Origin: Leptogorgia sarmentosa
Taxonomy: Eukaryota
DNA: 64,000 nt
Assembly (NCBI GenBank): GCA_964658305.1
Contig: OZ210884.1
Span: 7,998,001-8,062,000, forward strand
Direction of reading: 5' to 3'
In this document: in pieces, positions 964 to 60,826 of the stretch
Layout: each line of letters starts with the position of its first letter
Numbering within the stretch: the stretch's first letter is position 1
Notes under the pieces: generated by a model
What the model was told of the DNA's origin: nothing
Databases searched by the model: none
What the model saw: only the letters and a program-made list of their open reading frames with translations
Program-made: the position numbers and the translations under genes

Positions 964-1878
964 TTACGAAATATTCAATAACCGTTTGAATGCTGATCTA
1001 AATTTCTTCATTCCAATGAAATATATATAGGGATTGAGACAAGAGTTTAAGAAAGTAAACGACATCAACCAGCGCCATGTTATGCGTTTTGATGTCTTGG
1101 ATATAGTGTGATCAAAATGTGTTATAATTCTGTACACAGAATATGGCATGAACGTGGCGTAGAAAAGACATACGATAGAAAAGGTGGTGCAAACAGTTTT
1201 CCAAATGTGTAGGATACTTGCACTAGATTTCGTAGACTTGCTTGATTCTGAGTTGAGATGAGATAACTGGCTTGAGACGTTTTTAACCTGAGTTCTTGCT
1301 GTCCTCAAAATTACAGTGTAAATGATCGACATCAAAATCATCTGAAATATGGATATCAACGATAGGGTGAATTCGTATTCTTTATGTTTAATCCACCTTA
1401 TAACTGTCCCGTAACTCAATTTGTGACCAATACACAATGCCAGTGCTGTACACCAAGAAAGCGTTACTCCGAGCCGAACTAGTTTACTGGTAACTAACGC
1501 ATGATATCTTAGTGGACGAGTAACGGCTATAAATCTATCAATTCCAATGAGCAGTATTGCGTTTCCAGTGTTGAAGATGCAGAAGACAAATAACGAAGTG
1601 TAGTATTTGTAGTCCTCAGTTGTTCTGCGTATATGTAGAAGATGTGTTCGCCAAGGCAAATATGTCGTTAAGGCAACAAAATCGGCCACCGCCAAATTCA
1701 GAGTCAGTTTATCAGACGCGCTGTGATGCTCATGTCTTTTTCTCAAGAAGAATACGATTTCAAATATATTTGCTATTGATCCAAAGATGATCTGAAGTGA
1801 ATTGAAGATCACGAGAAAAGTCGCCGCGCTTGAATCCATAAGGAGCGATGTCTTGCCATCTGTGTTGTTGTGAAACAT
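964..1878 (-). CDS. Rhodopsin-class (class A) GPCR, single coding exon, 304 aa
   Basis: Seven hydrophobic segments; TM1 'GSIAN', TM2 'NLAVAD', TM3 'IGIDRF..V..PLRY', TM4 W, TM6 'FMPY', TM7 'NSCLNPYIY', helix-8 'KKFRSAF'; N-terminal NNT sequon. Confidence 0.93.
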   Translation of the reverse strand: MFHNNTDGKTSLLMDSSAATFLVIFNSLQIIFGSIANIFEIVFFLRKRHEHHSASDKLTLNLAVADFVALTTYLPWRTHLLHIRRTTEDYKYYTSLFVFCIFNTGNAILLIGIDRFIAVTRPLRYHALVTSKLVRLGVTLSWCTALALCIGHKLSYGTVIRWIKHKEYEFTLSLISIFQMILMSIIYTVILRTARTQVKNVSSQLSHLNSESSKSTKSSASILHIWKTVCTTFSIVCLFYATFMPYSVYRIITHFDHTISKTSKRITWRWLMSFTFLNSCLNPYIYFIGMKKFRSAFKRLLNIS

Positions 1879-4721
1879 CTCAGATGAAGCGGATCAATCA
1901 ACCCTTCAAACTTTCAACTCTATGACGGATGACCGCAAATTGATAAGAGTGCAAACTGATAGCACTAATGCGGTCCACGTTGAAATGCCAAAACGTTAGG
2001 ATCAAGCGAGAGGACTATTTTTCAAGGTCAAAATTATTTGTAGTGACATTGTGCAACCTGATGTCAGCTTCTATGAATTTTTTATCGTGGACTACAAATA
2101 CCTTGTGGGAGGAGTAATGTTTAAGCTTGTGATAATTATACGTATATACCGGTATACATAATTGTAAAGCGCCCGTTTAATCGTGCTCTTTTATTTATCC
2201 ATAATGTGTACATATCTACATGCCTGAGTAAACAAACTGGTGCAAAAAGAAATTAAGGCTGGACGCTTTAATTTGAAAGTATGAAAACCTATAGAATGTT
2301 GTAATATACATATCGTGGAGGCACACGTAGCTAATATACACTAAAAATCGTTTTATCGGTTGAAATGCGAGTGATAAAATATTTTAGCATTTTATAAACC
2401 CACTATATAATTATATAGTCTTAAATTAGCTATAGTTATTCATTTTAAAAATATTGTCGACCACTATTTTTCATGAATCGTTATATATATTTATATTATC
2501 GTTATAATAAATGTTATGATGATGTTTTATGTTTAACGAGAAATTTGTTTTTTTGGCCCTGAAAGCACACATGTTCTTGCTCATAAAGTAAGTGTAAAAA
2601 CATATAATTATTGTACAAAAAAAGGCTAGTCCGTGAAATTCAAATTAGTCATAATTATAGCGATCCGATTGTTCTAACTGCGTAGAGTTGATGAATGAGT
2701 CACAAAAACGTGTTTTATCTACAAAAGAAATGTCCATAACTAGAACAGTCTTTTGTTTTGAGGGTCGCTAAATGATTCGAAGGAATTATGTTTGTCATAT
2801 GAATGCAACACCATACGGCTACAATTTCAATTCAAAGACTAGAGCCTTTGTTTTATACACCCCATATCAGGACACTTTCAGCCAGCCTGAGTGCACTTTT
2901 GTGCGAATATGATTATTCAAATTGACGCCAATCTTTACGTCATTACCCTTAGGTTGTACACATGAGCAGCTGCTAGGTCTAACCATATATATATAGCATT
3001 TTACTAGACGACATTTGAACGTTTTCCTATATAACTAGCAATTGGTTTTTTAAAACGATTTTACCTGTCAGAAACATGGCGTTCAATTTGCACTCATGTA
3101 TATGCTGTACTTCTTGCTTGGCAGATACGATTTTGTATGCAAATTTAACTTTAAAAGACAATATTTAGTCATCAGTGTATACACACCTTGTACATCGATG
3201 TATTGAAATCAATTGAAATTCACCGAGGTGAATTCGAACTAATTATTTGATGCGTTCATCTGACTGAAGTGGCGCAATCATGGTCTGAAATCAAACATGC
3301 AAGTGCAATTACTCAAATGCGAGCATTAGGCTGACGCCAAATTTCCTTTCCATCATCGTCGGCGAGATAAGAACCCTCTAAGGATCGTATCGCATGATGT
3401 AGATCAGTAGATCGGCATAGGTTTTAAGATTTTTAAGAGGATAATTGTTTTTGCAAGTCGCGTATTTTCGTATTCATTTTTCGACAAAATGCATGGTGGT
3501 TAAAACTCTTTGCGGCGTTTTCTCTCAGAATCATGTCGTTCTATGATAGTAACCTCGAAAAGACAGTGCGTTGCCTTGGAAACTTTGTCTATAACTATGT
3601 CAGAGTGTCCAACCTTTAAAGGAATAGAAAAATTAGGAGCATCAATGTACGTAACTATACGTATACAGTCAGCACAAGATAATTGAAACCTTTGCTTTAG
3701 ATTTTAAACGTAATTTTAACCGTGGCATATTGTCCAAAATCTTTTTATCTTCGTTTTAAATTAAGGCACAAATTATGATTTCATGCTTTTGAAACAACCG
3801 AGCGAATATGCTCGAACAAAGAACTTAGCTCATTATTGACAATGGCCTAAAAGCCTCAAAATTCGATGTTTGTATTTCGACGAAGCAGTGGAGTTCTGAG
3901 CGAGAGTTATGCGTGGAATACGTAAAAATTTCGTCTTAATAATTTATGAAATGGAATTGAGTTATTTCGAGTGAGTTGAGTTTTTTCCATTATTATTGCA
4001 AATTACTGCCCTGTTGCAGCCGAGATTAGGGCATTGATACTGTTTAGAACTATAGATTGATACGTCGGAATTATGTGCTACGAACTTAAACTTCGCTATT
4101 AGTATACTAAAATCATTTTAGTCAATCTCCTGGACGCTGATTGGCTAAAAAGCTTCAACAACTGTGCGAATTAAACATTAATTACACAGGACTGGTGTGT
4201 AATTAAGATAGCTTTGTAAATTTTCCCGCTCTTTTTCATGAGTACGGCTGTGCTTGCGTCAGCAAATCCCTTAATCGATTTACGTGGTCGCTATAAGTTT
4301 TGAGTGATCTTCGTTGAAAATACGTGACACAGAAAAAATCTCTTCTTAACAAGCATTCCTCGTGAAATTACGTTTAATTTCATGAAAATACGCGTGAAAC
4401 TGAACCTCAATTTTACGTACTCGGTTCCATGCGCGATTACCTACATCTTTTTTAGAACTTTTGTTTAAGTCTGAATTATGCAAGAACAGTTTAAAGATAG
4501 CCAGAATTTCTATCGCTAAACTTGATATATCTAAAGATAATCTAAAATTAATTTGATATATCCGACATAGCTACAATTTAATACACAATGTAATATGCTA
4601 ACTGTCTTCATTAGCCTCAGCTTGGTTATTACAGTTAGCATGTACCCGCTCTCTGTCAATCTACTTTATTAATTTATTTGTCTTTCTCTCTTTGTAAGAT
4701 ATGGTAGCTACTTAATGAAAA

Positions 4722-4748: not shown

Positions 4749-5586
4749 ATAATCTCACTTGTTGCTATACACCGTTGAAAGTAGACGTAGTTGAAAGCCT
4801 GAATAACGATGTCTTCACAAAAAATCACTGTAATACATGCATTCAACAACTCATCGCCTATATACCCAAGGATACAACTATTTTTGGAACATGAGGTATT
4901 TGTAGACTGTTGTCATAGCAATATAAGAACTCGGGATGGAGGATGTCCACACGTGTTGCTTCGCACAGTGTCCGCGTTTTCAATAACAATTCAATTCAAT
5001 TTCATCTAATCCGTGAGTCGGCCTCAAGCGGGGTCTTTGATTATTCTTTCTGTATATATTTTATTTAAAGGTGTGAAAATAATGGCAAAAAATGGAAAAT
5101 TTTTATCCGGGCCGTATTATCTGTTATTTGCATGAAACTAATTTATTATCCATGTATATCCAATTGCAAGTTTCGTGTTTAAAAATAAAAAGCATTTCAA
5201 GAATAAAAAGCAAGACAATCTTCGCTTGTAGTCTTCATTAGATGTAAAGTTCGTTTTTATTTCGAAGTAATAAGAAGATCGATACAGTCTTCCCTTTACA
5301 GAACGTAAACTTATTCAGAAATCAACAGTGAACAGACAAAATTTATTGTCCAAAAAAAAGGCCCTCGTTTTCATGTGATAATATAGTTCGTTTAATTATA
5401 ACGTCAAACACAATTTTTAATTATAATTATATAATTACCTGTCCACAGGCGACTAACCGAAATAGACGATGCTAAATTATAAGAGGCTTTTTAAAACGCA
5501 TTTATTAACTCAATAGTATATTATACATATCGATTTAATTATATACATGAAAGCTGGGTTCATTCTGGCTACGAGAGCAAAAAAAA

Positions 5587-7102
5587 ATGCAAACTCAGAA
5601 CATTTCATTTTTAAACGAGTCCAGACCGATAGAAAATTATCTTACTTCTGATGAGCGAGCGATTTTAACTGGAGTGTATGTGGTATTGAGTTTTCTTGGG
5701 TTTTTCGGAAATGGAGTTGTGATATATGTTGTCATATCTACGCGATGTTACTTTGATGTTCCTGCTAACATTTTCATCCTCAGTCAAGCGTTTTCGGACA
5801 TGGGAACAGCGCTATCCTTATCCATCTACGTAGTTCATATGTATATCTGGATTTGGGACGTATTCTACTGGTACACAGCTGTAGTTTGGTTGGCTTCTCT
5901 GGGGAGTTTATTTCTGCTCACTTTTAATCGCTTGCTCTCGGTCGTCAACGCGTTCACGTATACTCATCTGATGACATTGACCCGCGCAAAAGTTCTGGTT
6001 GTGCTCAACTGGATTTTAGCCGTTTTCGTTACAGTATATCCTCTTCTTATTCCGTGGCCGTCTCTAAATACAAATCTCGGACGGTACTATGTTCTTGTGA
6101 TAACAGCAATGATGATAATATTTAACGTTTACTTATTTCGCGAGGCTAGAATTCAAGGCAAAAAAATAAAGCGGCAAAATCGAATCGTGACTGGATTGCA
6201 GGTATTTATAACATATGCAATTTTACAACGCCACGATACCGATTTTTAAGCCTATAATCAGTGAATAAATAAAGGAAAGAAATTAAAAGACAAATTTATT
6301 TTGATGATCAACGATTATACTTAACTATAGACGATATTGAATAAATATGTTGTTTGCTAATTTTTCGATGAGCATTTTTTAAGAGTGTCCATTTCTCTTT
6401 CAATTTCACTTATGCTTTTCATTATGAATACAGCGGTATGCACCTGCTAATGCTTTTATTTAAATTGAAAAAGTTGATATATTGGATTCACATTGTGACA
6501 ATACAAAACAAATAGTCTTTATGCATAATGACGTCAGGGCTGGGTGCTATGGAGACCACAAAATGACGTCATTTTACAATTCTACTGTGAAGAGATGTGA
6601 AATTCAAACAGCCTTCACTAATTTACATGTCTTAAAAGCAGATCGAATTGCGTTTCAAGTTGCGAGACAAATTTCATCGTGTAACAGAGCCTTTATATTA
6701 ATCCATTTATTATTTTCGTTTTATGATTTACAGAAAAACCTGAAAGAGGACTTCAAGTCAGTCAGGACTCTGGCCATCGTTAGCGGAACATTTTTGGTCT
6801 GCTGCCTACCATTCACAATTGTAGCGTTTATCTACGGAGATAATAAAGTGTCCATGGAGTTCCAGAGAAACGCCGCGTTCACCGGAATACTTATGTCTAT
6901 CAACGCAATTTCAGATCCAGTTATCTACTATTTCCGAAGCTCAGAGTTTCGGGCATTTTATCAGAGATTCAAACGATCCTGGCAAGCAGCACGAGGGAAC
7001 TCTTTGGAACCAATTCGTCCCTCCAGGACTTTAGCATGGGCGTATAAAATGAAGCGACAGATAGCACCGGTTGAAAATAACGGAGAGAAGATAACTATAT
7101 AG
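5587..7102 (+). CDS. Rhodopsin-class GPCR, two exons (5587-6201, 6734-7102), ~327 aa
   Basis: Exon 1 has TM1-5 (GNGVV, NIFILSQAFSD, TFNRL, NWILA). Phase-0 intron CAG|GTATTT at 6202 to TTTACAG| at 6733 lies in ICL3. Exon 2 has TM6 'FLVCCLPF', TM7 'NAISDPVIY' and helix-8 'SEFRAF'. Confidence 0.9.
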
Positions 7103-11706: not shown

Positions 11707-14700
11707 ATGGGACCTAAAACATCGCTTCTGAAAACTTTCCTTCTCGTCCTACTTTTTCATACCTTTTTCAAGGCTAATGCGGAGTCAACCAAGGAACTGA
11801 TACCGAAAAAGGAGTGCGAGAGAATCTCGGGCGTGGAGGTTCGTTATAACGAGTTCTACGAGCTTTATCTAGGACATGACACAGACAAAGGTGAAGTTCA
11901 GGAACAGGGAATTATATACAAAAGTTTGGCAAAAGCAGTGAACGCTTGCTGTCCTGGAATGGAGCTTAATTTCACATTTGTGAATACATCAGTGGAGTGG
12001 CTGGTGCAAGACGATATACTACATCACCATGAAGTACAAAACAGCTCCCATTTGATCTTTTATTTTCCAGAGTTTACATCCCAGGGAAACCTAGGTACGA
12101 TGGAATATTGACCAATGGCACGCGTGAATGACAGCATGAGGTCGCTATTTGAAATGATCTAAAATCACACGCTTCGAGCTGTTAATTTCCTTCGTGTGTC
12201 GACTGAGAATTATTTATAGCCAGAAATCATTGAAACGACTACGGGTCGAACAAGGTTGTGCATGAAACCACCATTTGAACAGTTTCGATTACACTTTCTC
12301 ATAATCTCATAATATTTTCACTTACGTATTTTTATTTAGAGGTCTACTCTCATCAGATTCCGTTTCTAAAGTTACGAAAGTCGCCAGGATTCGCTTTAGT
12401 GATGTTGAAGAGCGAGTCACATTTGCACTTATCTGCGTTGGATATTTTTGGATCATCCTGGTTAATTTTCGCCCTAGTATTGTCTCTGTCTTGGGCAGTT
12501 GGAATCATCGGTTGGGCATTGGTATGTATCAAAATTGTATAGGTACAGAAATCCAGCCAATACATGAATGGACACTATGGTCATTGTCTTAACTATAACT
12601 ATACAAAAAATCTGATCTGAAGACAATGCAGATATACTTTTTGCGTCTACGTTGCTAAGCAACGTAGAGGCTATGTAAGCGTAAAATTTCTGGCTGGCTG
12701 TGTTTCAACAACGAATATGACGTATTTTGACGTCACGAGCTCTCAAGGTAAACACTAACACGCAAACGTTGTTATCTTTACCGATGATGTATCGAACTTT
12801 CGGCAAATTAACTCGTGACGTATGCGATTTAGCTACTATGGCGTGTTTCGCAAGTGTGCGTTGTTCTAACGTTCGTTCGAAGGACTAATTTCCAAGCTTC
12901 TGTAAAGCGATTTCTAAATGGGGTTTTCATTTACTATTTCATGAGATTATACTTGTATTATATTTGTATTAGATTTGTATTATACTGATCATGAATACGG
13001 CGAGTTTCAAATGCAAGGCATCAACGTAGACGCTTGCACGCATCGTGCGTGCCTATTTTTTAATCTTAGAATCGAAGAGAGTATGCCATCGTATCTCTGA
13101 GCAATACAGATTTGTCGTTCGGTTCTAGTACTTATTTTGGCGGAATATAAACCTAAAGACTGGGCAAGGTTTACGTCTGGCCGTTTTTATGAGGCTGTAT
13201 AAAAAGAGGGGTAAAAAAATTAGAGAGTATTCCCAGAAAGCTTTCTTTTAAGCTGAGGAAGACAGACATCTGGCTTTCTTTGTTATGTAGTTAGTTAAAG
13301 TGTACTTCCACTGTTTATTCTTTGTTATTGATTTTTAACCCAACTGAATGGATTGCGAAGTCGAAAAATATCCGTGTCGAATAATAGTCGACATTTTATG
13401 AGATTTGAAGATTTTCTTTATGTGGGGACCTACATCCCAGTCCGAAAGCACATGCAAATCCCATCGTCTCAGTGGCTGTCCTGCTCAAATCATGATCCCA
13501 TTCTCTACTGTTTTCTCGCTGGTGAATCCCAGTGCATGAAATCCCATTTTCCCAGCAAAAAATAAGCAAATCATGGTTCCCAGTTTACCCCTACAGGACC
13601 CTCAATGTAAAACGCAACGCACGTGCATTTTTTCATCTATAGGACCACTACTCGAACCCCGAGGAATTTCCTACGCCATTTGTCCGAGGAATGTTTGAAG
13701 GATTTTGGTGGGCTACGATTACAATGACGACTGTGGGGTGAGCATATCCACTGAATACGCGAAAATGTCATGTTTTTTTGGGGTCGACACCCACTAATTC
13801 CCAAACCCTACGTGCACCACTTAATTTCGGTGCCCTCATCGTGAAAATTCTGATTATTCTCCAATTAATTAAAACCATAATTTTCGCGTTTTTTTCAACC
13901 TGCATATCCATCTTCCCATGTTTCAGATACGGTGATAAAGCACCCAAGTCAATCTTCGCTCGTATTCTTTGCATTTTCTGGATATTAGCTGGTGCCATTC
14001 TTCTTTCACTCTACACGGCAAACATAACATCCATCATTACTACCAGCAGAATTGAGCAGAATTCACGGACTATGGGCAAAAAGGTAAAAATAAAATATAA
14101 AGAATATCACCTCTTTAAAAACGCCCCTTATTAAAATATTCTTTCCCTTCAACTCGCATGCACAATTATTCCACCACGTTATTACAGGGTGTTATAACAT
14201 TTATTGGATTATCATTGCACTAGATCGGAATCGTCAATATGAAACATTTTGTGGAGGCAGAACTGAATCTTGGAGCTCAAATTATAGGTAATAATTACAC
14301 GGTGCTTCACGACATAATATTACTGATTCGCCGTCTGTGAATAACTCCTGCAATATTTATAGGTTTTACTTCTGACAAACGTTATTTGAAAATTTGCGGA
14401 CAAACGCTATACAATGTCTCCGTTTTTACTTACATACTCTACTTCTGTGAACAGTAGGGAGGTTGATAAGTCGGATGTGATACAACAATTCTTCACTGCG
14501 CATGCGTTTCCAGTCTTTCCCCACAGTAGTTTTGATTGAAGTGACCGAATGACTTTTCGCTCTACTGCAAAGGCAATCAGCAGGGAATTACAGAAATTCT
14601 ATCATCTTTTTTCAGAATACACCAAAGTTGAATCCGCCCTAAATGCTCTGTCGAACAAGACAATCGATCGACTGTTGTTTCCGCACTACCTGGATTTACT

Positions 14701-16006
14701 TTATCTCATGTCTGACCCTTATTACCGCTCAGGATCGCTCTCTGATATCTATATCGCGAAAGAACTGGATAAATCTTATCAGATTGGAATGGTGTTGTCG
14801 CATGCCGACGCTTCATCTATCCGCAATAATGAATTTTATACTTGTTTGGAAATTATGACATCTAGAGTTGCTTCTGAGGTATATATGGACTTAGGGTCAC
14901 GAATATTGTTGTTTGGGGGTGGGGTTAGGAGAGAATACCAGCTTCAGTAAATGATCAATAATCTTTTGGTCATGAACGGCTGTTGTGGAATACCTCGCCC
15001 CACCCTGCCTCTCACTTCACACCCGTGTATCAAGGCCTTTATACTGTATACTACACCATAAAGCACTCTAAACTATCTTAGTACACGATGGTAAGTCTGA
15101 TTTAGACGTCGAAACTTTCTTGTGTCAAACCCAATGTAAATTAGCTGAAACAAAAGTCATATTTACGTTATGTTCGGCGCATGAAACGTAAGAGGTCCGG
15201 GGCCGGTTGTTCGAAAGTTGGATAGTGCTATCCATGGGATAGCGATGTTTTCAAGCCTCCAAAAACAACCCGTTCATCGATCTGGTTCAGATTAAACTTT
15301 GGCATTTTCAAGTTGGACTTTTGCTGCATCAACTGCCAGGACCATATCTGCAATTTTATAGCTTTTTGAACATTTTTACAACAGTTAAAAAAATCACTAT
15401 CCAGTGGATAAAGTTTCCGACTTTCGAACAACCGACCCCTGAACTAAGGCGAATTATGTAGATATAAATTTAAACCTTACGTGTAATTAAAGTTGTATTA
15501 ATTTGTATTAATTATGTATCCTTATATTTAGCACGATTACGACTACTCTCGCATTGATGGCTCCATCATTGATGAAACCAAGAACACCTTTGACACAGGA
15601 GTCACTCTACAATATCTTTACGGCATATTGGGTGTGGTTGGAATGATGATCATTCTTGGGGCAGCTTTTGATATCTACAATCACTGCTACAAGTCTAGAG
15701 GAATGGCAAAGCAAAAGTCTTCAGGTAGGGTACATTGATTTACTTGAGCAGTGAATCGGCCTGACGGATTTCAATTTTGAAATTAATCTATGCAAAAAGA
15801 AGTGGTTTCAAGAGAAATTTGTTGAGCAGAACACGAATATATGAACATGCACTCCTTCCAATCAACCCTCTAACTACAGCAGCCTACAGCCTTGGCTCTT
15901 CACAAACTTTCCATGTCATATGATAAAAACTGCTCTGGCAACCTCGTTATTAATTATCAATGCTTGCCTTTAAGATTACGATCGGGGCCCTTCGAGGCCT
16001 ATCTAA
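11707..16006 (+). CDS. GluR0/AvGluR1-like ligand-gated channel with K+ selectivity filter, paralog 1 (~457 aa, 8 coding exons)
   Basis: Exons 11707-12094, 12340-12521, 13643-13737, 13927-14083, 14224-14287, 14616-14878, 15532-15724, 15975-16006; all GT-AG, in frame, 1374 nt total. Signal peptide; M1 (WLIFALVLSLSWAVGIIGWAL); pore GFWWATITMTTVG|YGDKAP; M3 ...SLYTANITS; S2 MGKKIGIV...YTKVESALNALSNKTID; M4 YLYGILGVVGMMIILGAAF; ends DYDRGPSRPI*. Confidence 0.88.
15198..15441. mobile_element. MITE in intron 6 of paralog 1, nested in a degenerate Harbinger-like MITE
   Basis: TIR GGGGCCGGTTGTTCGAAAGT / ACTTTCGAACAACCGACCCC. Flanks (15095-15197 and 15442-15450) resemble the 8909-9028 element. An internally similar decayed copy lies at ~10290-10450. 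Confidence 0.7.
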
Positions 16007-17873: not shown

Positions 17874-20800
17874 ATGGAATCAGTGGTAAGTACCATGTAT
17901 TGTTAGTTCGAAAAATTGTCGTAATTCATTAATTTATTCTTTATTCGTTTTCACGCCGAAGCAGCATGTATTTACATTATTTACCTCCAATCACACTGGA
18001 GGGCACTTAAATACTGCATATACCTCCGCCATGCAGCAGCATATTTCGGACGTTTTATTTTACCTCATCAGTCAAACATTTAAATATCAACAGAATATTC
18101 ATATTTGAGAGAATAAAGGGAAAATCTTAACTCTCTTAAAAGTTCTTTTTCAATTTTAAAAGAAATTAAACCAAATTCCTATCCATCAATTAATTTTTCT
18201 TTGTAAGCTTGCAGATGTATCAGTTTCGCACGTTCGATCAAAATATCGACAGAATATTCATATTTGAGAAAGTAGAGGAGAAATCTTAACTCTCTTAAAA
18301 GTTCTTTTTCAATTTTTAACGAAATTGAACCAAACTTTCATCAAATCTTACGTGTTCGTTTTTGTATTTCTTCAAAACGACTATCGCGTGTCTTGAAATA
18401 TTTCCAATTTTTTTTATAGTTTTTTTAGTTATTTTATTCAAGTATGTGCACCGTTGACCGTTGCGTTGCTTTATAAACTATTTGGTATAAACTTCAAGCA
18501 ATGAATTTAATATTAACGTCTTTGTTATTTGCATGGTTAAAAAATACAGTTTAGCTATGCTTACAGTAATGAATATTGATCATTTTATTATCATAAGCTT
18601 TCGGCGGATATACCACTGAAGATCCAAGCTTACGGACTGAAAGCTCTGCGATAATAAATCTATACAAAGAATAAATTGTAATGGATTCATATCTGTTGTT
18701 ACTATGAGCATGCATTTGCCAAATTCGGCAAAACAGTCCGTATAGCTTTGCTGTTGTTACATAGTCGTAGCTAATATGAGGGTAATTTTAGCTTAAGTTT
18801 ATGTTTAAACTAAGATTAATAACAATTTCCTATTTATATCAGACAACACTTGCTAGCAACGTTAGCTATATACACTCTTGTGCAAAGATATTTCAAAATA
18901 GTTAATTGAAATTTCAATTAACTTTGAACAGATGCAAATTTAACCAACCTATACGCATGTTTGTAAGAACAATTGAAAGCACTGCTAGCTTTTATGTAAA
19001 AATCATGTGCAAAAAGAAGGAAATGATGAGAATTTATGTATTTCTGAAGAAACATTTCCAAGCAATTTTCTAGTTTGGCACTGCATTGCGGGAACCTGCG
19101 GGTCACAGATCATGTTTGTTTTAATCAGAGCGATTCAAAGTGCATCATCAGCTATTCAGTATAATAGCGCAGCCAACTCTATGATTATATAGCGTAGCCA
19201 ACGTCCGGTGTAGCCAAGATATATGCGACAGAGCACTCATTATTTGTTTTCTAGCTCCCCCATTCCTTCGCTCCATTCATTCTCTAAGACACAACATCAT
19301 GTTAAATGTGACCATACTCAACGTCAACCTGACATGTTGAACAAAAAATAGCTCTGTGACTGTATAGCGTGGCACAGTGATCCATACCACACAGCACGCG
19401 GCAATACAAGATTATTGCAAGTCTTTTAAAGCCAAAATACGCGAAGTTTATGTGTTTATTAAAATTAATGTTCAGTTATTTACAAGTCGATCTTTTGTCT
19501 TTTATCTTTACCAATAACTTATTTTGTTATTTCAGGTAGCCAACCAGAGTAGCAGTGTTGCAAAATTCCAGAAATTCCTTGAGTCACAGGATGTTGGACC
19601 AAGAATGCTGTGTTTGGATGGCGGTGGAATACGCGGTCTCGTTTCCGCGATGGTTGTTGAAGAGCTTGAAAAAATACTGAACCAAGCTATTATTAAAAAG
19701 AATGATTTTCTATTAATGGCAGAATCCAGCCTAGATGACCCTGATGGAAGTGGTGAAACACATCATGAACAACAAAAGTTTATAAGAGAGATTCGTGAAA
19801 AGTTACCTAAAAAGTCGCCCGAAGGACAGTTCATCAGATTGTGGCATTTATTTGATGTCGTGATTGGTACAAGCACTGGTTCTCTCCTTGCTTACGGCAT
19901 CGGAATGACAAGGTTATCAGGTAAAATTGCCATAATTAAAAACCCCTAAAGAATGGTCACCAACAGCAGTCGTTTTTCCTAATGTGCTGCTAGCATTGAT
20001 AAATATACTGTACACAGAGGAACTCCAACATTACTGGGGCCGCGGAAGCTATTTAAATGTGGGGGGCTGAAATTGTTTTTACAGTTTTTCTATATTCTTG
20101 GTAGCATCATTATCACTATTATGACCCAACCCTAGCCTATAGGGTCCACTGCGCCTGAATTAATATACATGGGATAAAATAATTGTTCTTTTTAAATAGA
20201 AAATAATGAGAGAAAATATATACAATCTTAAAAGTAGAGAGACTGATCTAGTGCAACACCTATGCCAAAGAAAGATTTCGGCAGAAGGTGCTTTAGTTAT
20301 AATGGTACCTTGCAATGAAATAATCTTCCCAATGAAAAAAAACTGCTGACTCTTCCATTTTAAAGCAAGAAATGACTTGAAACTTGCTCGTTTATATTCC
20401 ATGAATTATCTTGTAAATCCATTTTTGTTGTTAATTTTCACGCCACTTAAGAAAATTGGCCAACAGATGGCGGTTGAGGCTAACGTCATAAAATAAAGTA
20501 TGTGTCTAGAAACAGGTTTATTGAATATATCTCGGCCTTCTTTCCAGTGGTCACTGCATTGTTGGACTGCCTCAATACATACATTATATAATAATTTTTG
20601 TTACTAACTCATGTATGATCTTATCTGATGCATGAATATCTTAAAATTCCAGGCTATGAATGTCGCGGGTTGTATGAGATTTTAGCAGATGAAATCTTCA
20701 AAGATTACCATCACTTTTCCATGTTGCGGGAAGCGAAGTATGAAAACAAAAACCTTAAAAAGGAACTGCAGAAATTCTTTCCTTATGATTTGGATATGAC

Positions 20801-22373
20801 ACGCATCAACAGCATTCCAATCACGGCTTCTTGTTCGTACAACATGGATAAGGGTCACATATCCCTGTCTGCGACCGCAGGCCTTGCTGACGAGGATGTC
20901 AAGGATATGGTATTGGGGAAATGCATTTTAGCAAGCGCAGCAGCGCCGACATATTTCCCGTCAGTGGAGCATAATGGTGAAAAATATGTTGATGGCGGGC
21001 TCGGAGCTAATTGTCCTGTGTACCATGGATACAGACTGGGAATGAGGCTCTATGACTACGAAGCAGCTCCTGGCGAAAGACCTGATCTCTTTTATGATGA
21101 TACCAAATACGAAAATATGCATCATCCTGCTTTTGTACCACCAGGTCAAAGGTACCAAACAAGACTTTGTCTGTCAATTGGTACAGGTATGCATAGTAAA
21201 ACCTCAGATAAAAGCTCAACTTATGCCCCCCCTCACGCCTTTGTACGTCTATGCGTCTTAATATTTGGTAAACAATTGTTTTCGATTTGGCAGATGTTAT
21301 CAATGCTTTTTGTAAATCAAGGGAATATTAATCAAACATTTTCTAAAAGAAGGCATCTCTGCGACTCATTATCATTATTATCATTATCATTATCAGGTGG
21401 AGGTACGGAGATTGATGTACCAAGCAAATGTCTGGGATGGTTCCAGGGCCTTGCACGTGTTGTATCACAAGCAGAGGGGCTTTGGAGAGTAGTAGAACCA
21501 ATGATGGAAAAGTTGAACAAGTTTGGATGCTTTAATCGCATAAATCCTTCCCCTGATGACCCGAATGGCAAGAAAATAGCGGAGTTTAAGCTTGATAATA
21601 CCGATGTCAAGACTCTAGGAAGACTGGCTGAGCAGTGGTTATCAGAGGAGTGTACACAGATGCAGTTAAAAGAAGTAGCGATGCAACTAATTGCTAAAAA
21701 CTACTATCTTGACTTTTCAGGTAAATCCTGTTTTCCATTAGGCGAATTTGTTCGCACGAACAAGAGTAACAAGGTAAAAAGAAACTTGATTGGCTGGCGA
21801 CATAACCTTCCAATCAAATTTACTTTCCGCCTGCTCGCGCGAAAAAATATCGCCAAAGGGGAAAAGGCTCCATATAGTATCTTTGTACAAACAAAGGTTT
21901 CAAACCTAAAATATTGTACAATTTACTTTTTATGAAGGCGTTTTTCTTTTCTGTATATTTCAGAGATTGGCAAAGGGATTACACCAGGATCAAATGTGCT
22001 TATTCCTTTATCGCAAATCACTCAATCAGTCTTCGACTTCGATGCCGGACACTTCGTCCCTGAAGCATACAAAGTTATCCGAGATTTGAAGGAAAAATCA
22101 GAAGATATCACTTCAGAATGTAAAGTAAAGATATTCATTATCAATCAAGGGTATTCTCCAGTGCAACTTGGTCTTTCATTTATATGCCCTGACGCACCAT
22201 TTGTGCTTGTGGTCAAGTTTAAACTACCAGGAATGGGAGTGAGCAAAGAGTTCGAAAATCAATGCTACATAAATGGGGGAAGGAGAATTTTTCTCTCCAG
22301 CCACACTCCCACTGGTAGCAGTGGGGGAGGATCATTTGAAGCAAATAAAACCTTAGAACCCTTCATGGCTTGA
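17874..22373 (+). CDS. Patatin-like phospholipase (PNPLA/iPLA2-type catalytic domain) with unrecognised C-terminal domain, ~554 aa
   Basis: Model: 17874-17885 (MESV|GTAAGT, less certain), 19536-19920, 20653-21186, 21397-21720, 21964-22373; 1665 nt in frame. Motifs LCLDGGGIRG (oxyanion loop), GTSTG (nucleophile Ser), ASAAAPTYF, YVDGGLGANCP (catalytic Asp), LSIGTG, FNRINP. Confidence 0.85.
18082..18340 (+). repeat. Direct repeat, ~100-bp block at 159-bp period, in patatin intron 1
   Basis: aaatatc(a/g)acagaatattcatatttgaga...aaatcttaactctcttaaaagttctttttcaatttt at 18082 and 18241. Confidence 0.85.
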
Positions 22374-25202: not shown

Positions 25203-28200
25203 ATGCGACTTCAAACATTGCTATTGAAAACTATCCTTGTCCTTGTACTCTTCGATATCTTATGCAAACTCAAAGGCGAGTCAATTCGTAGATTAATACC
25301 GAAAAAAAAGTGTGATAAAATCTCAGGCGTGGAGGTTCGTTATAACGAGTTCTACGAGCTTTATCTAGGACATGACGCGGACAATGATCAAGTTGATGAA
25401 AATGGAATTGTATACAAAAGCTTAAATAAAGCGGTGAACGCTTGCTGCCCTGGAATGGAGCTTAATTTCACTCTGGTGAATACATCGGTGGAATGGCTGG
25501 TCCAAAAAGATATACTACATCACCATGAAGCACGAAACAACTCTCGGTTGATCTTTTACTTTCCTGAGTTTACATCGCAAGGAAATATAGGTACGAGGAA
25601 ATATGCACTGCAGGAATGCATGTGACTAAAATTGACAAATGTTAGACCTGCCGCTATAGTCGCTACCTGAGAGAGAAATAATAGGCTGATTACATCAAGA
25701 AATTTGGGCTCGGGCTGAGATTTCATCCAGACTGTGGACGTATGGAAAGGAGAAGAATATTCTGAATAAGAAACACGAAGTGCATTAAAATATGAGCTTT
25801 TGTTATTCAAATTGTACTCCTCTTTCAATACGTCAACAGCCGGGTTCAAATTCCATCCCGGGCTGAAATTTCTCCATGTATAGTCATCTTCAAGTTTTGT
25901 TATCAATTGGGCTATTTGGCGTAACATTATGGGATATCTATCGTTTTGAGGCTTTGAGCAAAGGTGCAGGGATCACAAGATTACTCGAATTCATTTTGCT
26001 AACTGCCATTATGCGGTTTTTATAAACAAATGAAGTGAATAAAAAATGAAGCTGATAGACTAGGGAAGAAAAGAAAATAGTCAATTCAAACCATGCATAA
26101 ACATTACAATTAACTGTTTATGGCTAGCAATCGAGACGAGTTGGATGCGACCTTAATTATTTCCATGCAGCACGTTTTGTGATATTCATCTGGGCGTAGG
26201 AATTTCCTGTTTATCCTTGAAGCCCAATTACACAACGTGATATGCTAAAAAAATGGAATCATCGAATAGATCATGTCCGTGATTTCAGAGAAATGCGCAT
26301 TGGGAATAATTGCATATCCATTCCACGTTTGTGAGTGTATTAGCATTAAAAGCTTGCGTCGTGACTGAATATTTTTGGCCCAGTTACATGATTATGATTG
26401 CGCCGGAGTGACATCAATTTAGGACGCTTTCCAGTCTTCTCTGCTCTTCAAACGTTTTGTATTTAAAGTTTATGTTTAGCGCTGTGATATTATCACAATT
26501 TAAGTGCTAAATCCACTTTGAAATACCAAAAGTCGCTCGGACAGTATTCTGGTATCGTGTAACTGGGGCCTTAGTGACCTGCGTTTGAATCCCTCGGACA
26601 AACAATCCATGAGTTTGTGAATAGATCGACGTATATACCTGAACGAAAGAACCCAAAGTGAGAGTGAAACAAGGTTTGCATGAAACCTTTAGACGAGTTA
26701 GGTGTCAACTACAACTGCTCATGTAGTATAGTCTCATATTTTCACGTATTTTTATTTAGAGGTCTACTCGCATCAGATTCCGTTTCTAAAGTTACGAAAG
26801 TCGCCAGGATTCGCTTTAGTGATGTTGAAGAGCGAGTCACATTTGCACTTATCTGCGTTGGATATTATTGGACCATCATGGCCAATTTTTGCTTTGGTAC
26901 TGACTTTGTCTTGGGCGGTTGGAATCATTGGTTGGGCTTTGGTAAGTATCAAAATCTGTGGATCCAGATTCCAGAATCCAGCAAATTCGGGATACATTAC
27001 TGCCTACTTGGCTACTTCCCTTATTTGTCGCAGCTATTGAAAAAAAATATCACCATCTGAGAGAGAATACTGCACACGTCAACTTAGACCAAACGTTTAG
27101 ATAATGAATAAAATTTTTACTGATTTTTACATATGCGCGCTACCGTTGATATCGCGCTTGTTTAGTCAAGGTGAAGTTAAGGTGAGTAAATACGGTATGT
27201 GAGATCGAGTTTCACTGAAGTATGTGCAAGTAATTATGTTTCTTATAAAGAATGCTGTCGACAAGTATTTTCGACGTTTTCCAATACATGGCTTATATAT
27301 GATTAGCGTCATGTCTGCACTACCTACATTGGCCACACAAAGTATATTGAGACCCCAATTACACGATACCGTGTCCGCATCGATTGACATCAATTTAGGA
27401 GGCTTTCCAGTCTTCGCTGCTCCTGAAACTTTTTGTACTTCCAATTTTCGTTCAACTTGATGAGATTTAAAGACTCTCAGACTGTATCTTGAACATAACG
27501 TACATTTTTCCACCCACAGGAACATAATTCAAACCCCGAGGATTTCCCTACACCATTTTTTCGAGGAATGTTTGAAGGATTTTGGTGGGCTGTTGTTACA
27601 ATGACGACTGTGGGGTGAGCACACTCGATAGGCATATTTAACGTCTTAGGAAATCAATTGTTTTTATGGTATGTGAACACTGAACATGATTATATGAATA
27701 TGCCCCCCCCCCCCAATTATCGTTCTGGCTACGCCATTGCAGCAAACCTATTTTCCCATGTTTCAGATACGGTGATAAAACCCCCAAGTCAATCTTCGCT
27801 CGTATTCTTTGCATTTTCTGGATATTAGCTGGTGCTATTCTTCTTTCACTGTTCACTGGGAATACAACATCCATCATTACTGCCAATAGAATTGAGCAGA
27901 ATTCACGGACTATGGGTAAAAAGGTGAAAATAAAGTAGAAGCAGTTAATATAATAATTATCTTTCGGCTTGACAGCCGAAAACATCATTCAGCATAATTA
28001 TTCAATATCACGTGATCGATCATATCTAGCATGATCCAATTTCAAATGACCAATTTTCGATCAGAGTATTATAGAATTTATTCCATATTATTGCACTAGA
28101 TTGGGGTGGTTAATATGAAATACTTCGTGGAGACGGAACTGAATCTTGGAGCTCATATTCTAGGTATGAACCAACCTCGTCCCCAGGACCATGCCATTTG

Positions 28201-30276
28201 GGCGATATAGGGGGAGGCCATTTCGTGCCTCCCCTATATCGCGCAAATGGTCCCGGGGACGAGGTTGGGTATAAGCGTGTGCTTTATAACAAATAATAAC
28301 TTATTAATGAAGCGAGACGAGATGCTCTTGTACTTTTTATTATATTAGTTATATTACCCCCAAAAACATCCCACTACAGGCTGTTTCATCCAGGAAGAGG
28401 ATTCCGAGGCAACAGCATCAACGAGCAGCAAAAGTTCTACTCACTACATAAACGATACAAACAGAAACAGGAAAGCGCCTTTGCTGGAAGCGTCGAATCT
28501 GTTTTATCGTTTAGCTAGGCAGTAGATCTTTTGTTGCTGGATGATGACCACTATAAATTGTTTCTCAGCCATTAATCACAGTTTGTCATTTTACTGGAAG
28601 TGGTGCTTGCCATATGTTAAGATAATAAACAATTATTTCATCCACAGCTCTCATTGGGCTTAAATTCGCCCTATTGTGATGCGAATTAGTAGGAAATTTC
28701 AATTCATTATGGGATTACAGAAATTCTATCATCTTTTTTCAGAATACACCAAAGTTGAATCCGCGCTAAATGCTCTTTCGAACAAGACAATCGATCGACT
28801 GTTGTTTCCGCACTACCTGGATTTACTTTATCTCATGTCTGACCCTTATTACCGCTCAGGATTGTTCTCTGATATCTATATCGCGAAAGAATTGGATAAA
28901 TCTTATCAGATTGGAATGGTGTTGTCGCATCCTGACGCTTCATCCGTCCGTAATGATGATTTTTATACTTGTTTGGAAATTATGACATCTAGATTCGCTT
29001 CTGAGGTAGGGACACGTAGGGGCACGTAGGGTGCCTCGCGCGACATTGTTGGCCCGTTGTTCATCCAGCTTCTTTTCCAGCTGCAGAAAACGAATGATCG
29101 TGTTTAGTGGATAAGGCAAAAATGCGCATTTGGTCACGAATCATGTCTATCTCCACTGTTCTAGCGCCTGCACTTAGATAGCCACCGTATAAATTCAGCC
29201 AGAAGCGAGTGCTTTGTAGCAATGGCTTGGAGTGCCTAATTTGTTGGCATTTTGAAGCATGGGAAATTTTGCATGAAAAAGTAGTGTCAAAGCCTCTTTT
29301 CAACTTGTCGCAAAAGTCAATCCGCAAGCTGGCAACGAGTGCTTTCAAAGATTGTGATCTCGTAGCGACCTTACGAGTTGGCTTTTGCGGTGAAAAAGTG
29401 ACCGAAATTCCTTGCCACAGATTGCATGGGGCGAGCCAAAAATGCCCTTATACTTGCCCGCCATTTTATGGAGACAAAATTTCACTGAGAGTAACGGTAG
29501 GAGCACGCATTCTAATTTTATTATTTCTACAGTATACAACCCCACTTACTACATATGTTTTAGCTCAAAAGCAAAAAAAACCCTGTATGTATTTGTATGT
29601 TATAAATTAAGTTCCCTTATATTTAGCTCGATTACAACTACTCTCGCATTGATGACTCCATCATTGTTGAAAGCCAAAGCACATTTGACACAGATGTCAC
29701 CCAGCAATATCTTTACGCCATATTGGGTGTGGTTGGAGTCATTGTCATTCTTGGGGCAGCTTTTGATATCTACAATCACTGGCACAAATCTGGAAAAATG
29801 AGAGAGCAAAAATCTTCAGGTACTTTGATTGTCTTACGCTCTTTAATCACTGCTGGCAAATACCTGGTGAAGCTGTATCAAAGGCGTCTAGCTTAAATGG
29901 TGGATAAGTAAAAAAGCAAATATTAAGAAATCTACATGAGCTTAAAACCAAAAGTAAACTATACTTTTCTGTCTAAAAATAACAACTATGGATAGAAATA
30001 TACATTTAGTCGAAAAAATTTAAGATAAACCACTTACAAGTCGAACAGAAACGTTTTTAATCTTTGCATATACACCATTCAAACCAGGCGTATTTGATAC
30101 AACCGACACCTGATAAATTAGCCAACCGAACCTAATGCAAATGAGCTCAAAGAAAGCAATGAGCTATAGCTCATGCTCATTAAAATCAGGGTTGGCGTGT
30201 GAGAAGTTCGGTGTTAAAAAAAACCTATCAATATTCACCTTCAGAGTACGATCTCGGAGCTTCAACACCCGTCTAA
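25203..30276 (+). CDS. GluR0/AvGluR1-like ligand-gated channel with K+ selectivity filter, paralog 2 (~457 aa, 8 coding exons)
   Basis: Exons 25203-25590, 26760-26941, 27520-27614, 27767-27923, 28100-28163, 28743-29005, 29627-29819, 30245-30276; exon lengths identical to paralog 1 (388/182/95/157/64/263/193/32). Pore GFWWAVVTMTTVG|YGDKTP; M3 ...SLFTGNTTS; ends EYDLGASTPV*. Confidence 0.88.
28171..28268. mobile_element. Short palindromic MITE in intron 5 of paralog 2
   Basis: CCAACCTCGTCCCCAGGACCAT ... ATGGTCCCGGGGACGAGGTTGG with an internal stem gcgatatagggggaggc/gcctcccctatatcgc. Absent from the equivalent intron of paralog 1. A related half-end is at ~54799. Confidence 0.8.
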
Positions 30277-35628: not shown

Positions 35629-38600
35629 TCATGAACATTGCATGGCAACAAGAGATTGTGCAAGCATATGTCGTTTTTTCAACAAAATAAGTAGTCTTTG
35701 CTTTTCTAGTTCTTTATCAGCGAGCAGTCGCTGTTCTTCTTGTTCTAAATATTTCACATACTCACAAGACTTCTTCAGAATGAGAACTTTAGGAGCTCTA
35801 TCGTTATCTTGAAGCTCCGGTAAACAATCTCGTAGCCGTTGAAATTTCTCCTTCAATTCTTCACGTCTTCGTCTTTCCAAAACGTTATGAGTTGCCCGAG
35901 TTGTCTCGCTGTCTTCGGAGTCATCCGCGGCTTCATCGGTGAGTATCGTCTCTTGTGTTCCACGACTTATTGTGCGCCTGATCTTCCTGCCTCGTTTTGT
36001 AGGACTTTCTGGTAGTGGTTGCAGATTGGTCAGGTCGAATGGACCGACTAGATTAACTCTTTCGTTTAAATAGTTCGGGTCTAAAAATGACAAAATATCA
36101 ATGAGCACTACTGCAATATTAGTTAGAACTATATACAACATTTCCTATAAATTCTGTATCTATAAATTATCGCGTGCTGTTTTTAGATGGTTGTTAGCTA
36201 TATCGAGTTGATAAAATTCGGATCGAAATTATGTGCAAAATACGAGATACTTGCTTTCTATGTAAAATTTTTCAAGGGTAAAGGTATCCTGTATATATTC
36301 AATACCGCGTAAATGCATTTTTTATTGATTTGAATAGTTCATTAAGACATTATGACTATACCAACAGGTGGTCTCCATTCTTTGTGTCGGATTGTATTCA
36401 TTTTACTCCTGAGTAATTTTGAAAATAACGGTCACTCGATTCAAATTTCTATCGCGTGTATCAATAGCAACTTCTTTAATTAACAAAATCGTATCGTCCC
36501 TTCGCCGAGGCGCCCGGCGCACTTTGCTTTTGCTTATGGCTTCTTCAGCTATTGTATTCATAATTTATTGTCATTTTACAGAAAGTGAAATGCGTTTTCG
36601 CATTGTTTAGTATGTTTGTCATCATAACGTGTTATTGCTTTCGTAATCACAACAATATTTTTTTTCATGTTTTGCTCAGACAGATGCCCGCGATAAGGCA
36701 TAATTAAAACAAAGCACGTTGCGCGAACTTTCAAAATTATGAGGCTTTTGCTAAGTCTACTTAATAAGCTTGATAAAAGGCTTAGCAGAATTTTAAATTA
36801 GACACAGAAGACCATAAACACGTCTACCTGAAACTTACAAAAGTGTAGGCACACAGATTTCTTTATTTAACTCTTTAGCACACCCGAAAGCTGCATGTAT
36901 ACGCCAATACAATCCTCCCGTTGAAAAGCAATAGCAAATTTTCTATTCCGAGCAAAAAGTATAACGTTTGGGGCGGCTAATAAATTTAGTATATAGCTAC
37001 CCTATAGACTTATATGGCTGTAGAATTTGATAAGCGTATTTGCATGGGCCAATACAGCTTTCTCATGCCATTTTTCTGATGACTTGGAGCAGATTCATAA
37101 GCCCTTAGCTCAAACCCTGCATTAAATTAAATTGCGATGGAGCCGGGTATGTGGAAGTCATGTTGAAAGCTTGTTAGTCCAACAGGCGTTTTCTCTGCTA
37201 AACCAAATAAACATAAATGAAATAAACCAAAATACAACTGCAGGTTAAATTTTAGCTTAGGGTTAGTGCTTGGCTAGTTTGAATATCCGGTCCTTGAAAG
37301 ACAATTTCTGTTTTGAAAGGAAAATCCAAAACAGTTAGCACAGCTACACGTGATGGATGATATTTTCTCATAAGCTATTTTCGTACTTGTAAAGGATATT
37401 TCAAGATATGCGAATTGAACTGAAACCTGCCAATTACTGTATAATACTTTTTCATGAAGGAAATCTATAAATCCAGCAACAATTAGCAGACAAATAATTC
37501 AATATAATACATTCAATACAAGTATATCGGAAAAGAACATTTCCTAAGTCGAATCCTGTTGTGAATTAGTGTGTAAATAATACAAGGTTTTTTTCAACTA
37601 GGAAGAGTTGTGACCAATTTTCTCATTCGTGAAAAGGCAGGTGGCTTGAGGGAAATCATTCACTGCTTTGTATTTGAGAAGCGCATCTTCTAATTTAGCT
37701 CACAATTATCTTGTCTAGTCGCTGCTCAGTGCTCACACTAAACTCATGCATGCATGCATGTAGCAAACTTGCGGTCGACCAACCTATAAGTTGGACAGAT
37801 TTCAAAACGATGCTACGCGTTCATCGCTCGGACCGTATACAGTGGAGCATTCAAAGTTGCACTACCAGCGTCAATAAGCGGGAAAACTTGCCTGGCTGCT
37901 AAGCAAAAGAATTGTAATGTACACTGCATGGTTGAAAGTTGAAACCAATATGAACCAACCCTCAACGGAAAGGGGAGGGAAGGCCCACTTGAGGTCTTAG
38001 CTCCGACATAGTATCGATTCAAATTGCCAGTGTAAACGTTGAGTTAAATTTAGCAAACTCATTCATTTTGTGTATAAAGGCGGTAAAATCGCATCCGCAT
38101 CTAAATATCTCTATTATAAACTGCTCCTTTGAATTCAATGCTGCTATAATCCGTTCCGTTATATTCATGATATTTAAAGCCAGAAGCGAATTCTAGTTTC
38201 CTAAAACTTTAATGAAGTGTCTATCAAATGATCACAAGTCGGAATTTTACTCGCTCATTCAAAAGATTCTATCAATGACAAAGGACAAAACGCCCTGTTA
38301 TACGATTGGTCAATAAACGCAATTAAATAACGCTATGTCGTTATCACCATAGCAGCAAGTGCATGAATGAATCGCATTAAAAATTTGAATAATCCCTTCA
38401 TAGATTGAAAAACAGGTGTTGGCACAATTACTGATGTATTGAATATTTGAATTGCTGGTAGTTTTAAATTATTTTTTAGCAAACAACAAAATCGCTTTCT
38501 CGTATATTGTGAAATACAGTTATCGATTTGCAAACTCCATCAGAATTGCTAGGACATATTGTACAAATTGAAAGACTTTCAATTTTTGTAATTCTTATTT

Positions 38601-60263: not shown

Positions 60264-60826
60264 TCAAAACGACAAATTATCGTTCTGCATTTCTAAGACC
60301 TTTTTCAAGAGCTGATCTTTGCGGTTCTTTTGTATCCTAATCTGCTGTATAAGACTCCTTTCTTCAGCCTGCAGGTGCAAGATATAGTTGTATGCTTTTT
60401 GAAGAATTGAAACTTTTGGTGCCCTGTCGTTGCCACAAATGTCAGGAATTGCGTCCCTGAGATATTGAAAACGCAATTTGAGTTCATTTCTTCTTTTTCG
60501 TTCCAAAACATTATGTGTGGCTCGGCCAAGTATTTCACAGTCCAGGTCAGATTCATCTCCTGATAAAACTCGTGTTTTTTGTTCAGTACAATTTTCTTTA
60601 TCTGAATCGCTATTACTAGATCTTCTTCTCTTTGTTCCAGAACGAAGGTTGCAAGAGTAATCATGATCAGTGTTTTCCGATTGTGGCGCGCTTTTTACAG
60701 GAATCGAAGGAGATGCATTGTCACATTTTTCACCAGATTCCGACTCTTCTTCTTTCATATTTTCCTCCTTTTCGTCGGCTTTTTGGTTTCCTTCTAATCC
60801 AACGACATCTACTTCTACTTCTTCAT
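60264..60826 (-). CDS. myc: Myc-family bHLH-ZIP gene B, last coding exon only (5' part not found in window)
   Basis: Acceptor TTTTCTAGCAG|; reads (D)EEVEVDVVG (MBIIIb), DHDY, RATHNVLERKRRNELKLRFQYLRDAIPDICGNDRAPKVSILQKAYNYI plus zipper; stop at 60264-66. Confidence 0.88.

Follow-up and report, generated by a model that had tools for sequence, protein, structure and literature searches.

Two paralogous genes, here called A and B, were found in a stretch of 64,000 nucleotides of Leptogorgia sarmentosa DNA (GenBank assembly GCA_964658305.1, contig OZ210884.1, positions 7,998,001 to 8,062,000 of the forward strand; this whole stretch is referred to as the window, and all coordinates below are counted within it). 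Both encode predicted ion channel subunits in which a K+ filter lies between the two halves, S1 and S2, of a ligand-binding clamshell. Judged by alignment with ionotropic glutamate receptors (iGluRs), A and B have lost the equivalents of Arg485, Gly653-Ser654-Thr655, Asp705 and Tyr732; to judge from a new Glu122, Lys281 and Asp322, their pocket seems to have been rewired and not simply emptied. We favor, at somewhat less than an even chance, the reading that A and B would be K+-selective tetramers with the clamshell outside, gated by a polar ligand other than glutamate in the rewired pocket, and hyperpolarising.

Each protein runs from an N-terminal hydrophobic helix through S1, M1, P, M2 and S2 to an extra, M4-like hydrophobic helix and a short tail. 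The N-terminal helix, which by hydropathy is clear in B and under the cut-off in A, is likely a signal peptide; S1 starts about 15 residues past it, and no amino-terminal domain was found ahead of S1 in either protein. The filter sequence TTVGYGD is present in both; neither A nor B has a non-selective pore loop of the Q/R/N type, the K+ filter standing in its place, and the best sequence matches in the PDB are K+ channels. The gate motif reads LYTANITSI in A and LFTGNTTSI in B, nearer to the bacterial than to the animal, SYTANLAAF-like form. In Pfam, exon 4 of gene A matched Lig_chan (4.7e-9) and Ion_trans_2 (1.4e-6); apart from this match, no domain was found in the S1 or S2 exons, and neither SBP_bac_3 nor Lig_chan-Glu_bd in five full-length members of the family described below. 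Since Pfam is thus blind to S1 and S2, domain-based surveys of iGluRs likely miss the family. An Atlas search with S1 alone as query returned only leads under 0.9.

The fold was examined on AlphaFold models of two relatives from Dendronephthya, P0001 (pLDDT 84.8) and P0002 (86.4), which are 68% identical to the window proteins and agree with A almost or fully in their pocket segments. The comparison with GluR0 that had been proposed in the original prediction indeed gave a match: the P0001 model aligned with GluR0 structure 1ii5 at Z 14.7 (root-mean-square deviation 3.5, 211 residues aligned) and with 2pyy at Z 14.8 (3.0, 200 residues), and the P0002 model scored Z 13.8 with both; the residue mapping given below comes from profiles and not from coordinates. 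Against type II binding proteins in general the same models reached Z 14-15.5, and GluR0 cores were part of the tie at the top. BvgS, the top fold match (Z 15.5 and 15.2), was considered as a pointer to ligand independence and set aside as uninformative, as it is tied with many binding proteins. By Foldseek, the whole chain of a relative was matched to the ligand-binding and transmembrane domains of AMPA receptors, which were the best matches (E about 1e-9); sequence identity in the structural matches to animal iGluRs was 10-15%. In the models of these close relatives, therefore, the clamshell has the amino-acid-binding-protein fold.

The ligand pocket and the proposed gating of the channel

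According to PMC6307864 and PMC2950845, iGluRs anchor the ligand backbone by Arg485 and an acid at 705, and positions 653 and 655 set selectivity. For the mapping, a bacterial profile was built from 31 GluR0-like proteins out of 39 bacterial-looking matches, long fusions and near-duplicates being excluded; it aligns motif by motif to GluR0 2pyy and to glutamine-binding protein, and hhalign matched the family to it with a probability of 100 over 289-319 columns. The S2 mapping is firm: Met280-Lys281-His282 (within NMKH, 14236-14247) falls at Gly-Ser-Thr, Pro318 (Pro318-His319, 14681-14686) at the Asp of 'DAvvyD', and Ile352 at the Tyr preceding Gly. The position of the S1 Arg maps to Gln126, Gly127 or Leu129, varying by alignment run; whatever the register, neither Arg nor Lys occurs from Pro121 to Phe138 in A or B. 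In the bacterial controls, the Arg motif and the Asp were each found in 29/31, and in the models of the relatives a strand and a loop occupy the place where the Arg-bearing short helix would sit. An earlier alignment by eye, in which all three glutamate sites were replaced (no Arg, NMKH, Pro-His), was thus right. With both Arg485 and the 705 acid gone, canonical glutamate binding by A and B is therefore unlikely.

The pocket was next compared across the family, in an alignment of 216 proteins plus A and B from which 180 near-full modules were kept and 38 partial ones dropped. A and B belong to a 12-member clade with support 1.0, the named members of which are all octocoral; other octocoral proteins fall outside it. 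No member of this clade has the acid at 705 (0/12, against 151/168 other members), Pro318 being present in 12/12, and none has Tyr732 (0/12 against 123/168). Conversely, an acid at 122 is found in 8/12 and an acid at 322 in 9/12, against 0/168 others in either case, and Lys or Arg at 281 in 11/12 against 44/168. Position 653 is Met in 5/5 members of the A/B orthogroup, and Ser in 7/12 members of the clade.

In the mechanism that we favor, the GluR0-shaped A and B subunits likely assemble as tetramers with probable K+ selectivity, in an inverted topology that would place the clamshell outside. The clamshell likely still drives the gate, coupled through the helix that carries YTANITS. The predicted trigger is a small, polar, non-glutamate molecule, which Glu122 of lobe 1 and Lys281, His319 and Asp322 of lobe 2 may hold, the charges being exchanged between the lobes relative to glutamate receptors; this putative site with its swapped charges is the weakest step. 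Opening of the channel would be hyperpolarising, i.e., inhibitory.

Several points weigh against this mechanism. The role of A and B as channels is a prediction. The pocket counts represent one evolutionary event on one branch, not twelve. Instead of holding a ligand, Glu122 and Lys281 could form a bridge between themselves, and P0003 has Glu in place of Lys at 281. A higher conservation of the cleft, which would speak in its favor, is not significant: among four orthogroup members, 15/21 cleft-mapped positions are invariant compared to 100/199 elsewhere in the clamshell (p 0.07), the cleft positions having been picked by alignment and not by coordinates. The pocket may also be filled by Met280, which stands where Gly653 would be (compare Tyr653 in PMC6307864). 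Lastly, a Trichoplax receptor that has lost the 705 acid is a leak channel (bioRxiv 10.1101/2023.08.03.551817), and an orphan ligand therefore has real rivals.

The most serious of these rivals, though we consider it unlikely on balance, is a background K+ channel without a ligand, in which the clamshell would be self-filled or latched by Met280, Pro318-His319 or a Glu122-Lys281 bridge, open at rest and at most inhibited by solute or pH. The Trichoplax receptor in question, AKDF-19383, whose residues 705/706 are Tyr-Tyr, shows constitutive activity that glycine, alanine and D-serine inhibit. The window proteins have Pro-His at the same two positions, along with the Met at 653 that all five orthogroup members share; a cross-lobe salt bridge is moreover described for ctenophore receptors (PMC12226733). 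However, the authors of the Trichoplax paper themselves regard it as tenuous to predict constitutive activity from the 705 residue, a term search of it for Pro gave 0 matches, and the seven other clade members retain a small Ser at 653. The original claim of a gating ligand other than glutamate holds insofar as canonical glutamate is concerned, Arg485 and the 705 acid being gone; that such a ligand exists had been assumed.

Improbable, in our view, is gating by amino acids, maybe weakly even by glutamate, through surrogate residues, with Lys281 serving the carboxylate and the amine held by either Glu122 or Asp322. Part of this explanation aside, canonical glutamate gating is unlikely on every reading considered here. 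The gained acid and base do lie at or near the positions that contact the ligand backbone in iGluRs. Against it, prokaryotic groups 1 and 2 conserve both Arg and Asp without exception (PMC2950845), as our bacterial controls nearly do, and both models replace the short helix that would bear the Arg. Slightly less probable again is that A and B are silent or modulatory subunits, working only in heteromers that include family members with the 705 acid retained. In Dendronephthya there are at least six paralogs, among them one that lies outside the A/B clade and keeps the Asp, and the anchors are lost in 28/122 animal iGluRs (PMC6307864); nonetheless, the whole 12-member clade is acid-less, yet its filter and gate motif are intact.

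The triplet of histidines (HHH, 12022-12030) had suggested gating by a metal or by protons. HHH is complete in the four proteins A, B, P0001 and P0003, whereas P0002 reads LHH, with two His; the full triplet is missing at this site from the remaining 176/180 modules, including the seven other clade members that share the pocket changes. It sits within an insertion at the end of the helix preceding the strand to Pro121, which we take, from the clamshell topology, to be on the far side of lobe 1, away from the cleft. Being confined to 4/180 modules of one orthogroup and mapping off the cleft, HHH offers a weak case, and gating by Zn2+ or protons through it is very improbable, although HHH might still have a modulatory role; His319, in the cleft, would be the better candidate. 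Sharing of motifs between the paralogs adds little here: ACCPG, Cys37, the YTCLE Cys and DILHHHE are all common to A and B, as had been pointed out, but this is not above chance where 68% of S1 tripeptides are identical, overall identity is 84%, and some exon tracts are without any synonymous change.

The mature clamshell of A contains exactly four Cys (37, 81, 82 and 372), which would most simply form two disulfides within lobe 1. Covariation of Cys was examined as independent support for disulfides: in 134 Cys-Cys members, a nearby Cys and the S2 Cys seemed mutually exclusive (2/54/59/19, p 1e-18). This was rejected, as the S2 Cys changes once on the tree and the total number of Cys is even in 99/180.

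The wider family and its long members

A word-based search gave 315 matches, and 81 of the 120 listed were eukaryotic-looking; in a full HMMER search, 973 representatives passed E<=1e-30, and with the cut-off at 1e-10 the number rose to 5479, other channels certainly being present among these weaker matches. The named members belong to octocorals, stony corals, anemones, Hydra, Hydractinia, Clytia and Rhopilema, and most of the nearest Atlas clusters are cnidarian. Ten divergent members were looked up, among them two from bilaterians with a full module, Lingula anatina (P0223) and Owenia fusiformis (P0193); P0223 has Tyr-Gly for Cys-Cys and a Glu at the acid site. In a tree of family members and the 31 bacterial proteins only, the 180 modules formed one long-branched group against the bacterial set, with support 0.83. 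The GYGD filter is present in 175/180 modules, Pro121 in 179/180 and Cys-Cys in most, and an M4-like helix in 168/171 scored members compared to 0/31 bacterial controls.

A conserved S1 Arg was not found family-wide, as no column from Pro121 to Phe138 has Arg in more than 20 of the 180 modules. The counts of acid and Tyr732 outside the A/B clade indicate, therefore, that most members there retain the amine half-site. Thus, a clamshell lacking the glutamate residues, as originally described, is true of A and B, which represent one branch of a large family whose members mostly have the acid. Pocket residues differ across paralog groups, with several paralogs per species on a scaffold of common length, a pattern from which we infer something like a receptor repertoire. 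A separate clade of 46 members (P0163, P0172 and P0075 among them) is a large expansion with CCxxC and without the S2 Cys, often with Arg at the Ser654 equivalent (a K/R-x-R-x-x-D pattern).

Databases label the members as 'uncharacterized' or as voltage-gated K+ channels. A description of the family was not found in the literature searched, subscription papers and bioRxiv supplements being beyond reach. A term search of a survey of cnidarian voltage-gated K+ channels (PMC9989356) met neither 'glutamate' nor 'GluR', and the supplements of PMC13003132, except one file, gave no match for five Nematostella locus identifiers.

Adhesion-type domains lie ahead of the channel module in 23/24 longer members scanned, and comprise fn3, CUB-Ig, EGF, MAM, F5/8, TLDc, TSP1, SEA and pentraxin-type domains. 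These proteins (P0130, P0146, P0151, P0159, P0137 and others) are 670-4084 amino acids long, and most cluster on the tree; those named are from Nematostella, Hydra, Rhopilema, Actinia and Montipora. By this architecture they are candidate tethered mechanosensory or contact-gated K+ channels. One of the top-ten transcripts of the Nematostella nematosome (PMC4877951) is labelled sidekick-2 and carries FN3, TLD, MAM, F5/8 and Ion_trans_2; by this domain list only, it is a candidate member.

We consider it possible, though doubtful, that these proteins represent an ancient animal family of inhibitory, iGluR-shaped K+ channels that was present in the cnidarian-bilaterian ancestor and gave up glutamate. 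Most members would sense amines or cations by a half-site in which the Asp is kept and the Arg lost, one octocoral branch would have the charge-swapped pocket, and another branch, with giant adhesion ectodomains, would serve stinging-cell tissue as tethered sensors of touch or contact.

Gene models, splicing and neighboring genes

Gene A consists of eight exons at 11707-16006 on the plus strand and, with GT-AG introns removed, encodes about 457 residues; all motifs quoted originally are in place after this removal. Exon 1 (11707..12094) carries the likely signal peptide, Cys37 (11815), Cys81-Cys82 (11947-11952), the HHH triplet, the near-invariant Pro121 with Glu122 (12067-12072), and the Arg-less loop that the family counts describe. 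Exon 2 (12340..12521) encodes the end of S1, the pre-M1 segment and M1, as placed by GT-AG sites and hydropathy, and its boundaries equal those of B. Exon 3 (13643..13737) encodes the M1-P loop, the pore helix and TTVG of the filter, and exon 4 (13927..14083) the remaining YGD, the inner helix with the gate-like YTANITS (from 14012) and the start of S2; the spliced joint 13736>13926 is present in the contigs of runs X4 and X5. Exon 5 (14224..14287), with the first strand of S2, is followed by a joint at 14285>14614, and exon 6 (14616..14878) encodes the remaining S2, including Asp322 (14693) and Cys372 (14843). The coordinates given originally stop at 14878 and thereby miss exon 7 (15532..15724), with the M4-like helix (about 15607-15678, hydropathy up to 2.07; counterparts at 407-438 and 415-446 in the relatives' models), and exon 8 (15975..16006), with the final 10 residues and the stop, where an X4 contig piece begins at 15973.

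The eight exons of paralog B, on the plus strand at 25203-25590, 26760-26941, 27520-27614, 27767-27923, 28100-28163, 28743-29005, 29627-29819 and 30245-30276, match those of A and likewise encode about 457 residues. Spliced contigs contain all seven joints of B, the first six in both X4 and X5 and the seventh in X5 alone, and for gene A two joints are listed directly, other contig pieces stopping at predicted exon edges. X4 and X5 are two runs of one study, their kind not being on record, and cover mostly exons and repeats; none of the A or B joints was found in the two other runs examined. Contigs were placed at 90% likeness, so that B contigs also fall on gene A; the X4 joints on gene A are nonetheless likely its own, because their depths (13.5 and 14.8) differ from those of B (30.6 and 38.3). 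The C-termini, RPI in A, TPV in B and RPV or RKV in relatives, presumably resemble PDZ-type ligands (15975-16006, 30245-30276). The introns of gene A contain high-copy repeats (about 12630-13110, 13430-13590 and 15200-15520), where summed contig depth is thousands to tens of thousands compared to about 100.

A and B are under purifying selection (dN/dS, the ratio of nonsynonymous to synonymous rates, 0.28 overall, 0.25 in S1, 0.18 in the pore and 0.24 in S2), and the nearest named proteins to both, at 68% identity, are those of the octocoral Dendronephthya gigantea. Two tracts are without a base difference between the paralogs, namely 12351-12446 against 26771-26866 (96 bases) and 14651-14735 against 28778-28862 (85 bases), and some intron ends are also identical, whereas dS outside the tracts is 0.3-1.0; gene conversion between A and B is therefore likely.

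Other genes were noted in the window. A patatin-like phospholipase gene lies between A and B (19518-22373, plus strand; Pfam Patatin). Two basic helix-loop-helix exons with a weak Myc_N match (35629-41578 and 60264-60839, minus strand) likely belong to two Myc-like genes, and rhodopsin-type G-protein-coupled receptor genes lie at 964-1893 (minus strand, by eye only) and 5551-7102 (plus strand, by 7tm_1).

Relation to known receptors

GluR0 of Synechocystis and Nostoc (1ii5, 2pyy), a Group 1 prokaryotic iGluR, shares with A and B the order S1-M1-P-M2-S2, the lack of an amino-terminal domain, TxVGYGD and the clamshell. A and B differ from it in being animal and intron-containing, in having an M4 with a tail and the Cys-Cys motif, and in lacking the S1 Arg, as does the whole family, and the S2 Asp, as does their clade. 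Ger et al. 2010 (PMC2950845) found the Group 1 combination of features in bacteria only. By their sequences, then, A and B are GluR0-like in pore and layout but fall outside Group 1 on Arg, Asp and M4.

Among animal channels, the closest in description is AvGluR1 of the rotifer Adineta vaga, which is iGluR-like, K+-selective and bacterial-like, and which responds to glutamate as well as to hydrophobic amino acids (PMC12226733). It resembles A and B as an animal K+ channel of the iGluR type and differs in responding to glutamate, a comparison made by description, outside the tree. Further differences are the amino-terminal domain of AvGluR1 and its S1 Arg, which is retained. Animal iGluRs at large (AMPA/kainate/delta/Phi, or AKDF, and NMDA, Epsilon and Lambda) share the layout of ligand-binding and transmembrane domains with M4 and a YTAN-type gate motif, whereas A and B are without the amino-terminal domain and have a K+ filter in place of the Q/R/N site. 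Trichoplax AKDF-19383 resembles A and B in having naturally lost the 705 acid and in the bulky residue that follows; this AKDF-branch iGluR still answers amino acids, in contrast to which A and B also lack the Arg and have a K+-type pore motif.

Loss of residues alone is ordinary, in view of the 28/122 cited above (PMC6307864); the surprise is the family. The combination of a bacterial pore with a eukaryotic M4 bears on the origin of iGluRs. The subunits, at about 457 amino acids, are short and easy to express, and would suit tests of how a K+ pore can be controlled by a clamshell in the absence of glutamate. Glutamate receptors with a K+ filter are known from bacteria and one rotifer, to which a cnidarian family with brachiopod and annelid members would be added; if our reading is true, it would constitute a new class of ligand-controlled K+ channels in early nervous or sensory systems, unmentioned in the channel surveys that were checked.

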